Source of the DNA: Escherichia phage N4
Sequence record: NC_008720.1
Length of the DNA stretch: 64,000 nt
Strand: one strand, 5' to 3'
A program made the translations under genes and the position numbers. The notes under the pieces are model-generated. The model had not been told where the DNA came from, did no database searches, and was given only the letters and a program-made list of their open reading frames with translations. Below, in pieces: positions 25,979-26,146 of this stretch (position 1 is its first letter; every line of letters starts with the position of its first letter).

Positions 25979-26146
25979 ATGGTGGCTACAAAGCTACTGC
26001 TGGGTGTGGTGGTGTTTATAGTTTTGATTCTTCTTATTGTCAGAATTATAGACGTGTCGGCTCCATATCTAGCATTCATTATCACCGTCATTATCTTGTA
26101 TAAGTGCTGTGGTAGTGGTGGTGACACTAAGCCGCCAGGTAATTAA
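25979..26146 (+). CDS. Small membrane protein (55 aa), not in the ORF track
   Basis: ATG 25979; two hydrophobic helices (LLLGVVVFIVLILLIV, LAFIITVIILY); followed by a hairpin at 26157-26182 and a T-rich tract. Weak SD. Confidence 0.3.
   Translation: MVATKLLLGVVVFIVLILLIVRIIDVSAPYLAFIITVIILYKCCGSGGDTKPPGN

Follow-up and report, generated by a model that had tools for sequence, protein, structure and literature searches.

The closest described relatives of the small hydrophobic ORF analyzed here are the members of phrog_19025, among them AlfredRasser bas69_0030, Achromobacter phage phiAxp-3 YP_009208705.1, JWDelta JJJA_0064, Erwinia phage Ea9-2 Ea92_64A and Pseudomonas phage Zuri gp70. Like the N4 protein, these are proteins of 46-64 aa, encoded directly after a gp47 homologue and distinguished by a long hydrophobic stretch with a central (S/A)APY(I/V)A motif, an invariant Pro, an aromatic residue and a Lys at the helix end and an acidic Pro-Pro tail. 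The N4 copy differs from them in lying outside the reference annotation and in its GTG start. Enquatrovirinae versions carry a conserved Arg21/Asp24 pair, whereas those of distant clades lack it. A further likeness is offered by Klebsiella phage Pylas gp62 and E. coli phage Pollock gp57, 50-aa hydrophobic ORFs that occupy the same slot and share the central Pro and the acidic tail; Pylas gp62 is annotated with one transmembrane domain, the N-terminus being inside and the C-terminus outside. The N4 ORF is thus a member of a small-protein family that has already been seen in relatives without an assigned function.

We have analyzed this ORF within a window of 64,000 nucleotides of Escherichia phage N4 (NC_008720.1, one strand, 5′ to 3′), in which window position x corresponds to N4 coordinate x + 6153. 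Around the ORF, the window is 97-99% identical to the Enquatrovirus phages PMBT57, 3HA13, OLB145, AlfredRasser and Jura. The coding sequence of the 54-aa hydrophobic protein, taken from its conserved GTG start, occupies 25982-26146 on the + strand. Upstream of it, on the same strand, are found the genes of gp45, the N4 single-stranded DNA-binding protein (SSB; 24168-24965), gp46, a RuvC-like resolvase (24965-25522), and gp47, an acidic protein whose limits (25525-25967) were drawn from the alignment of relatives and which matches phrog_7641, a family with no function attached. Downstream, again on the + strand, lie a stem-loop identified by folding and covariation (26154-26185), a cluster of tRNAs Asn-GTT, Ser-TGA, Thr-TGT and Pro-TGG (26298-26977; ARAGORN and Rfam RF00005) and, 3′ of the tRNAs and 5′ of gp48, a strong canonical intrinsic terminator with a 12-bp stem followed by a T-run (27424-27453; terminator scan). 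The stretches around tRNA-Pro, 26548-26900 and 26978-27423, are without a convincing gene; the Jura annotation has an undetermined tRNA in the former and that of AlfredRasser two tiny CDSs of 35 and 33 aa in the latter.

Taken jointly, the evidence makes it quite probable that the ORF is a genuine N4 gene omitted from the reference annotation, encoding a membrane protein of ~54 residues that is coupled to gp47 and conserved with its module. The finding is ordinary in kind and does not overturn current understanding. What the analysis adds is the evidence of selection, the corrected start, the position behind gp47 that is kept in several subfamilies and the conserved hairpin next to it. Moreover, work on superinfection, on lysis inhibition or on the localization of the replication complex is offered a concrete gene to knock out, one that is short and cheap to target.

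Start codon and coding constraint of the small ORF

The first-pass annotation had placed a 55-aa ORF at 25979-26146, between the gene of the acidic protein gp47 and the tRNAs. The ORF is indeed present at these coordinates and in this place, but its conserved start is GTG 25982 (N4 position 32135) rather than ATG 25979. In the alignment, the GTG is the sole start common to N4 and its relatives, while the in-frame ATG, which would add one residue to give the 55-aa form, is found in N4 only; its position reads ACG in close relatives and the codon is missing (3-nt gap) in G7C-like phages. A distant metagenomic homologue (50 aa, 48% identity), located behind a gp47 homologue, has an ATG in place of the GTG. 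Therefore, the protein has 54 aa, and use of the ATG would bring it to 55 aa in N4; its 54-aa form from GTG 25982 reads fM-ATKLLLGVVVFIVLILLIVRIIDVSAPYLAFIITVIILYKCCGSGGDTKPPGN, of which CCGSGGDTKPPGN is a peptide. In some G7C-like phages, annotators have called a 38-aa form from an internal ATG, a form that omits the first hydrophobic segment and for which N4 has ATT at the corresponding codon. Since differences between the N-terminal codons are mostly synonymous (5 of the 6 codons that differ between N4 and G7C within the first 15 residues, as read from the alignment), the long GTG-started form is favored over the 38-aa one.

A weak Shine-Dalgarno-like GGGTGA can be read at 25973-25978 on the + strand, abutting ATG 25979 and leaving 3 nt between its end and GTG 25982. 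It is only partly conserved, as close relatives have GGGTAA here and G7C-like phages TGGTAG. Because this ribosome-binding site is weak and the gp47 stop precedes the start of the small ORF by 8-16 nt across lineages, with an overlap in phage Zuri, the ORF is probably translationally coupled to gp47.

ORFs of such length arise easily by chance. Counted over all six frames, there are 156 ORFs of 40-59 aa in the window, 17 of them with a GRAVY above 1.0, so that the presence of one more is not in itself above chance; it is conservation that lifts the ORF behind gp47, together with gp23 and gp72, above this background. The same survey returned a very hydrophobic 40-aa ORF at 59206-59328, which was dismissed as it lies antisense inside a 556-aa gene.

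By tblastn and blastn, matches to the ORF behind gp47, with its C-terminal half matched, were found in 83 phage records of Enquatrovirus, Gamaleyavirus and allied phages, made up of 14 close N4 relatives and 69 records of Gamaleyavirus, Moovirus and allied phages at ~72-76% nucleotide identity. Disruption of the frame in close relatives, which the first-pass annotation had named as grounds for giving the ORF up, was observed in none, the ORF being intact in 21 of 21 extracted loci (12 distinct nucleotide versions). Indels among relatives are all in frame, as with the extra Gly codon in AlfredRasser. When N4 is compared with the G7C, pSb-1 and Moo19 types, dN/dS ranges from 0.13 to 0.34 (dS 0.76-0.96, dN 0.10-0.25). 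Of the six frames this is the sole one without stops in all relatives; the other five have stops in most sequences or a dN/dS of 0.4 to 12. The ORF is conserved and syntenic, it is under coding constraint and its product is hydrophobic. A search of the literature for ribosome profiling, proteomics, a transcript map or transcript-end data for this region of N4 found none.

The first-pass annotation had in fact reported three short membrane-protein genes, hidden only by a 60-aa cutoff of the ORF track. That all three are plausible genes is borne out by our analysis; as for their being missing, two of them, gp23 and gp72, are known N4 genes that are annotated already, leaving the ORF behind gp47 as the only one absent from the N4 reference. 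The ORF at 3585-3755 (+ strand, 56 aa in the ORF listing) corresponds to gp23 (YP_950501; full-length match to phrog_23946 at E 4e-37), as a Jura CDS differing by 2 residues was given the name gp23 from its BLAST match to YP_950501, and it is annotated as a CDS in AlfredRasser as well. It was said to be coupled to the HNH gene, and its ATG does abut the TAA of that gene, gp22. However, gp23 DNA is matched end to end only in the 14 closest relatives, so gp22 and gp23 do not form a conserved pair despite their TAA-ATG junction. In the two copies read, from Jura and AlfredRasser, gp23 is intact, with substitutions too few for a selection test. Homologues of the HNH gene gp22 (window 3228-3755 together with gp23) occur in many N4-like phages that infect other hosts.

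The ORF at 63795-63923 (+ strand, 42 aa in the ORF listing) corresponds to gp72 (YP_950550; phrog_19797 at E 3e-31), as judged from a Jura CDS that differs by 1 residue and is labelled gp72 by BLAST to YP_950550. The Shine-Dalgarno AAGGAA noticed earlier is present at 63785-63790, 4 nt upstream of the ATG, and homologues are annotated in the Gamaleyavirus phages pSb-1 and St11Ph5, with a dN/dS of about 0.35. The description of the three products as membrane proteins suits the ORF behind gp47 and gp23, for which hydropathy gives one strong hydrophobic segment, but not gp72. The best 19-residue Kyte-Doolittle mean of gp72 is 1.23 and its summed Hessa insertion free energy is above +11 kcal/mol; in the absence of a hydrophobic segment, this soluble-looking protein is not a membrane protein.

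A small-protein family behind gp47

Protein databases lack most small ORFs that begin with GTG, and when the N4 sequence alone served as query, a word-indexed search of proteins accordingly returned one match only, the 38-aa form; for this reason, a profile search and an exhaustive HMMER search were needed. The profile search recovered 28 such proteins, all of them hypothetical, and the long contigs among their sources were about as long as N4-like genomes. In the resulting alignment of 30 sequences, P28 is invariant and W/Y40 nearly so; 12 of the 30 members match phrog_19025 (best E 7.6e-39) and 5 match phrog_23833. The N4 protein itself matches phrog_19025 at E 3.4e-7 in its 55-aa form and 8.1e-7 in its 54-aa form, the G7C-type protein at 5.4e-9 and the metagenomic homologue at 1e-6; these scores are modest owing to length and composition, PHROGs come without a curated cutoff, and similarity scores among hydrophobic mini-proteins are inflated by composition. 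Scans of the N4 protein found no Pfam-A family at E up to 1 and no NCBIfam family above cutoff.

A search with gp47 revealed that Schitoviridae widely carry its N-terminal domain. A small ORF comes directly after the gp47 homologue in N4, AlfredRasser, G7C, phi G17, HK2, pSb-1 and ECBP1, and likewise in Bas96, Moo19, the metagenomic contig, Ea9-2, phiAxp-3 and Zuri. In four other lineages, represented by Ea9-2, phiAxp-3, Pylas and Zuri, the ORF in this place is 46-59 aa long and its translation shows a long hydrophobic stretch, a central (S/A)APY(I/V)A, a closing Trp/Tyr and an acidic Pro-Pro tail. Profile-profile comparison aligned the N4 clade with the Achromobacter-phage clade at 98.2% probability and with the Erwinia/Pseudomonas clade at 95.4%, with the SAPY motif in register in both cases. 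Between the N4 clade and the Pylas/Pollock-type ORF, hhalign detected no similarity (probability 0.4%), and the latter should thus be considered a positional analogue only, so that the gene is not demonstrably present throughout the family. Nevertheless, it is kept behind gp47 in Enquatrovirus, Gamaleyavirus, Moovirus and, as judged from profile similarity, N4-like phages of Achromobacter, Erwinia and Pseudomonas, and hence it is an old, conserved member of this module.

The omission of the gene from the N4 RefSeq can be deduced from accession numbers quoted by other annotators; YP_950479 to YP_950550 correspond one-to-one to gp1-gp72, and as gp47 (YP_950525) and gp48 (YP_950526) are consecutive, no entry would be left for an ORF between them. 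N4 is a model phage and its 72-gene reference annotation is still the source of gene names in its relatives; a gene missing there is therefore missing in derived annotations too, and the ORF was skipped in Jura, G7C, 3HA13 and PMBT57. In AlfredRasser, the homologue is annotated as hypothetical (bas69_0030, QXV75798.1). A separate observation concerns phi G17, ECBP1 and Bas96 (positions 1017-1283), in which the gene 3′ of the hairpin is annotated from a GTG and overlaps both the small ORF and the hairpin; the true start of that downstream gene is likely the ATG after a GAGG site (MNKFTIHW...). In those G7C-like genomes, the small ORF is either missing or called as its 38-aa form.

The gp47 junction and the downstream stem-loop

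In the window, gp47 lacks one A in the run at 25892-25895 (N4 32045-32048), and its last ~23 residues are frameshifted as a result. It reads ...EEEKKYRKKRLKNQYKPNLLCLQV, while all relatives read ...EEEKEVQEEEAKEPVQAKPSLFAGLKR with a stop at 25965-25967. Given this one-nucleotide deletion in the window sequence, the true gp47 stop is TAA 25965-25967; the corrected protein ends in ...KPSLFAGLKR, and its stop lies 14 nt before GTG 25982. The same difference from RefSeq is reported for a resequenced laboratory N4 stock, which has an additional A at N4 position 32048 and hence a gp47 of 147 aa, with no change listed inside the small ORF (PMC12642591 Table S1). The corrected C-terminus of gp47, KPSLFAGLKR (25935-25967), resembles that of gp45, AAKSLFGKK (24930-24965), and a distant gp47 homologue keeps a similar tip, KPSLFANLRK. 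Perhaps gp45 and gp47 share a docking motif.

Seven nucleotides after the stop codon of the small ORF begins a stem-loop, the stem of which pairs 26154-26164 with 26175-26185 around a 10-nt loop, ATTACTCTCC (26165-26174), and which is extended by an outer helix to about 26145-26193. The RNA folds with a free energy of -23.8 kcal/mol (z = -6.8). When 9 distinct versions are aligned, pairing is retained in 96.8% of the cells, and in 8 of 14 pairs both partners have changed; the observed covariation score was reached by 0 of 500 shuffles and not approached by slid registers. As several of the pairs are G-U, the structure belongs to the + (mRNA sense) strand. All 16 versions, from Enquatrovirus, Gamaleyavirus and Moovirus, share an unchanged loop A(A/T)TACTCTCC. 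It is kept in the distant metagenomic relative too, at which a T-run follows the stem as in an ordinary terminator; in N4 and G7C-like phages, the tail after the stem is only partly T-rich.

Rfam returned no match for the stem-loop. The window contains no second copy of it either, and it is thus not a repeated type of terminator. Scanning IMG/VR for the loop motif GGATTACTCTCCCC gave 91 stretches; apart from N4 itself, none of them was flanked by a stem and all were put down to chance. The loop is also complementary over 8 nt to the ribosome-binding region of gp24 (3775-3782), but a match of this kind is at chance level and was dropped. In Jura (LR999871.1, locus ~2340-2470; window ~26116-26240), a tandem duplication of ~127 bp covers the 3′ end of the small ORF and the hairpin, and this phage carries two hairpin copies before its tRNAs.

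We regard the stem-loop as a candidate regulatory RNA element, which would mark the 3′ boundary of the operon as a terminator or as a stabilizer and the loop of which would be recognized by something. A description of the 3′ ends of N4 middle transcripts was not found in the literature searched. The arrangement that we propose is that the small ORF would be the last frame of a rightward block running through gp45 (SSB), gp46 (RuvC-like resolvase) and gp47, that ribosomes which have just terminated on gp47, 14 nt upstream, would start again at GTG 25982, and that the unit would be closed by the conserved stem-loop.

Topology, possible functions and comparison with known small membrane proteins

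Residues 5-40 of the protein form a run of 36 residues that is hydrophobic except for R21 and D24, with S26 and P28 nearby. These four residues lie between a strongly hydrophobic segment 5-20/23 (Kyte-Doolittle 3.4; summed Hessa value -4.9 to -6.2) and a moderately hydrophobic one, 25-40, with a mean of about 2.2 by hand calculation on the same scales; a short polar C-terminal tail with a conserved acidic-x-Pro-Pro motif follows. From this composition, the protein is predicted to be inserted into the inner membrane of the host. Monné, Hermansson and von Heijne reportedly examined turn propensity in transmembrane helices in 1999. A hydrophobic run of 36 residues with turn-promoting residues mid-way would be expected to fold as a tight helical hairpin, and the charges at K4, K41 and K50 would leave both of its ends in the cytoplasm. 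Our preferred topology is such a hairpin, in which the R-x-x-D-V-S-A-P-Y turn would be placed at the periplasmic face. However, AlphaFold2 predicts one straight helix over residues 2-44 (pLDDT 80-83, with 5-sequence and 30-sequence alignments alike), and the Pylas analogue is annotated with one transmembrane domain. The two transmembrane helices proposed by the first-pass annotation are accordingly plausible from the sequence and are not reproduced by the structure prediction.

The first-pass annotation pointed to host takeover or exclusion, in which small membrane proteins of phages often act, and the small ORF may have such a role. Conservation across different hosts and the fixed pairing with gp47 suggest a target that is common to N4-like infections. 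Our best guess, tentative as it is, would be that the protein acts in the inner membrane on a component shared by such infections, for example by blocking genome entry by a second N4-like phage. Entry exclusion and partnership with gp47 are the two leading possibilities, and we hold each with low confidence.

If the protein is an entry-blocking mini-protein of the inner membrane, it would be made from the middle phase onward and would stop delivery of a second N4-like genome and of the virion RNA polymerase. Its small size and hydrophobicity are consistent with such superinfection exclusion, as is the location of its gene in a rightward block and not in the late lysis cassette. Conservation across N4-like phages that differ in hosts and receptors would fit a target in a shared ejection machinery, and the most conserved part, the central motif, would face the periplasm if the hairpin is formed. 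Moreover, N4 is reported to answer superinfection by lysis inhibition (PMC12642591). On the other hand, the protein bears no similarity to known exclusion proteins; its scan against Pfam-A, which holds an Imm family, gave no match to the T4 Imm family at E up to 1, and what Pfam, NCBIfam and PHROG searches return carries no function. Exclusion genes are, besides, usually variable accessory genes and not conserved syntenic ones, and we consider exclusion in this specific form possible, if doubtful.

Synteny speaks for a membrane partner of gp47, and hence of the replication/recombination module, which would tether or regulate gp47 at the inner membrane. The pair formed by gp47 and the small ORF is kept in every lineage examined with a gap of 0-16 nt, and this is so even though the pair is followed by tRNAs in some phages and, in others, by an HNH gene, a DUF7740 gene or the gene of the virion RNA polymerase. 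Spacing as close as this points to coupled translation, as is typical where proteins are made in a fixed ratio. Yet gp47 is itself without a known function, and shared operon history may be enough to account for the synteny, which leaves this partnership an unlikely explanation in our estimation. A broader reading would join either of these roles, gp47/module partner or family-wide entry blocker, in a core ancestral component of Schitoviridae and would add that the hairpin is a dedicated recognition site controlling the operon, where it may serve, for example, to terminate or process the transcripts of phage RNA polymerase II; taken jointly, these claims are distinctly unlikely to hold.

A factor in lysis timing, be it a holin, an antiholin or a component of lysis inhibition, is brought to mind by a size and hydrophobicity like those of class II holins and pinholins, and control of N4 lysis inhibition has been incompletely mapped (PMC12642591). 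Nonetheless, the N4 cassette of gp60, gp60a, gp61, gp62 and gp63 was defined experimentally in the late region and is sufficient for both lysis and lysis inhibition. In the same study, more than 60 rapid-lysis mutants were obtained, with none near the small ORF; they mapped to gp61, gp63, gp50, gp1, gp39 and the terminal repeat (PMC12642591). A holin gene would be looked for in the lysis cassette beside the endolysin gene, while the small ORF follows those of the SSB, the resolvase and gp47, in a block that is not late and is far from the endolysin gene, and a role in lysis timing is therefore very improbable. Weakest of all is the proposal that the ORF is incidental and untranslated, overlying a conserved non-coding terminator or processing element between the replication genes and the tRNAs, to which the strongly conserved structured element directly behind it, the weak and poorly conserved Shine-Dalgarno, its omission by gene callers for N4, G7C, 3HA13, PMBT57 and Jura and the frequency of chance ORFs of such size would lend themselves, but which is rendered highly improbable by the concentration of substitutions at synonymous sites in this frame only, the stops or high dN/dS of the other five, the in-frame indels and the retention of size, hydrophobic pattern, SAPY motif and position in relatives at 30-48% protein identity.

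Returning to entry exclusion and partnership with gp47 as the leading possibilities for a translated membrane protein, known small membrane proteins can be set beside it. [quoted passage not shown] Unlike it, gp62 and gp63 are ~110 aa long, are encoded in the late cassette beside the endolysin gene and have a demonstrated lysis activity (PMC12642591). The small ORF is half their size, belongs to the replication block and is implicated by no rapid-lysis mutant.

T4 Imm and HK97 gp15 are small inner-membrane superinfection-exclusion proteins made before the late phase. As small inner-membrane proteins encoded by phages, they may serve as a functional model for the N4 protein, which is shorter, is almost devoid of extramembrane sequence, and is conserved and syntenic rather than accessory. 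Among bacterial proteins, AcrZ, MgtS, KdpF and CydX are regulators of about 30-50 residues, nearly all transmembrane helix, that bind larger membrane proteins. These are single-helix proteins of the host and have no sequence relationship to the N4 protein, so that the likeness would be one of functional analogy only.
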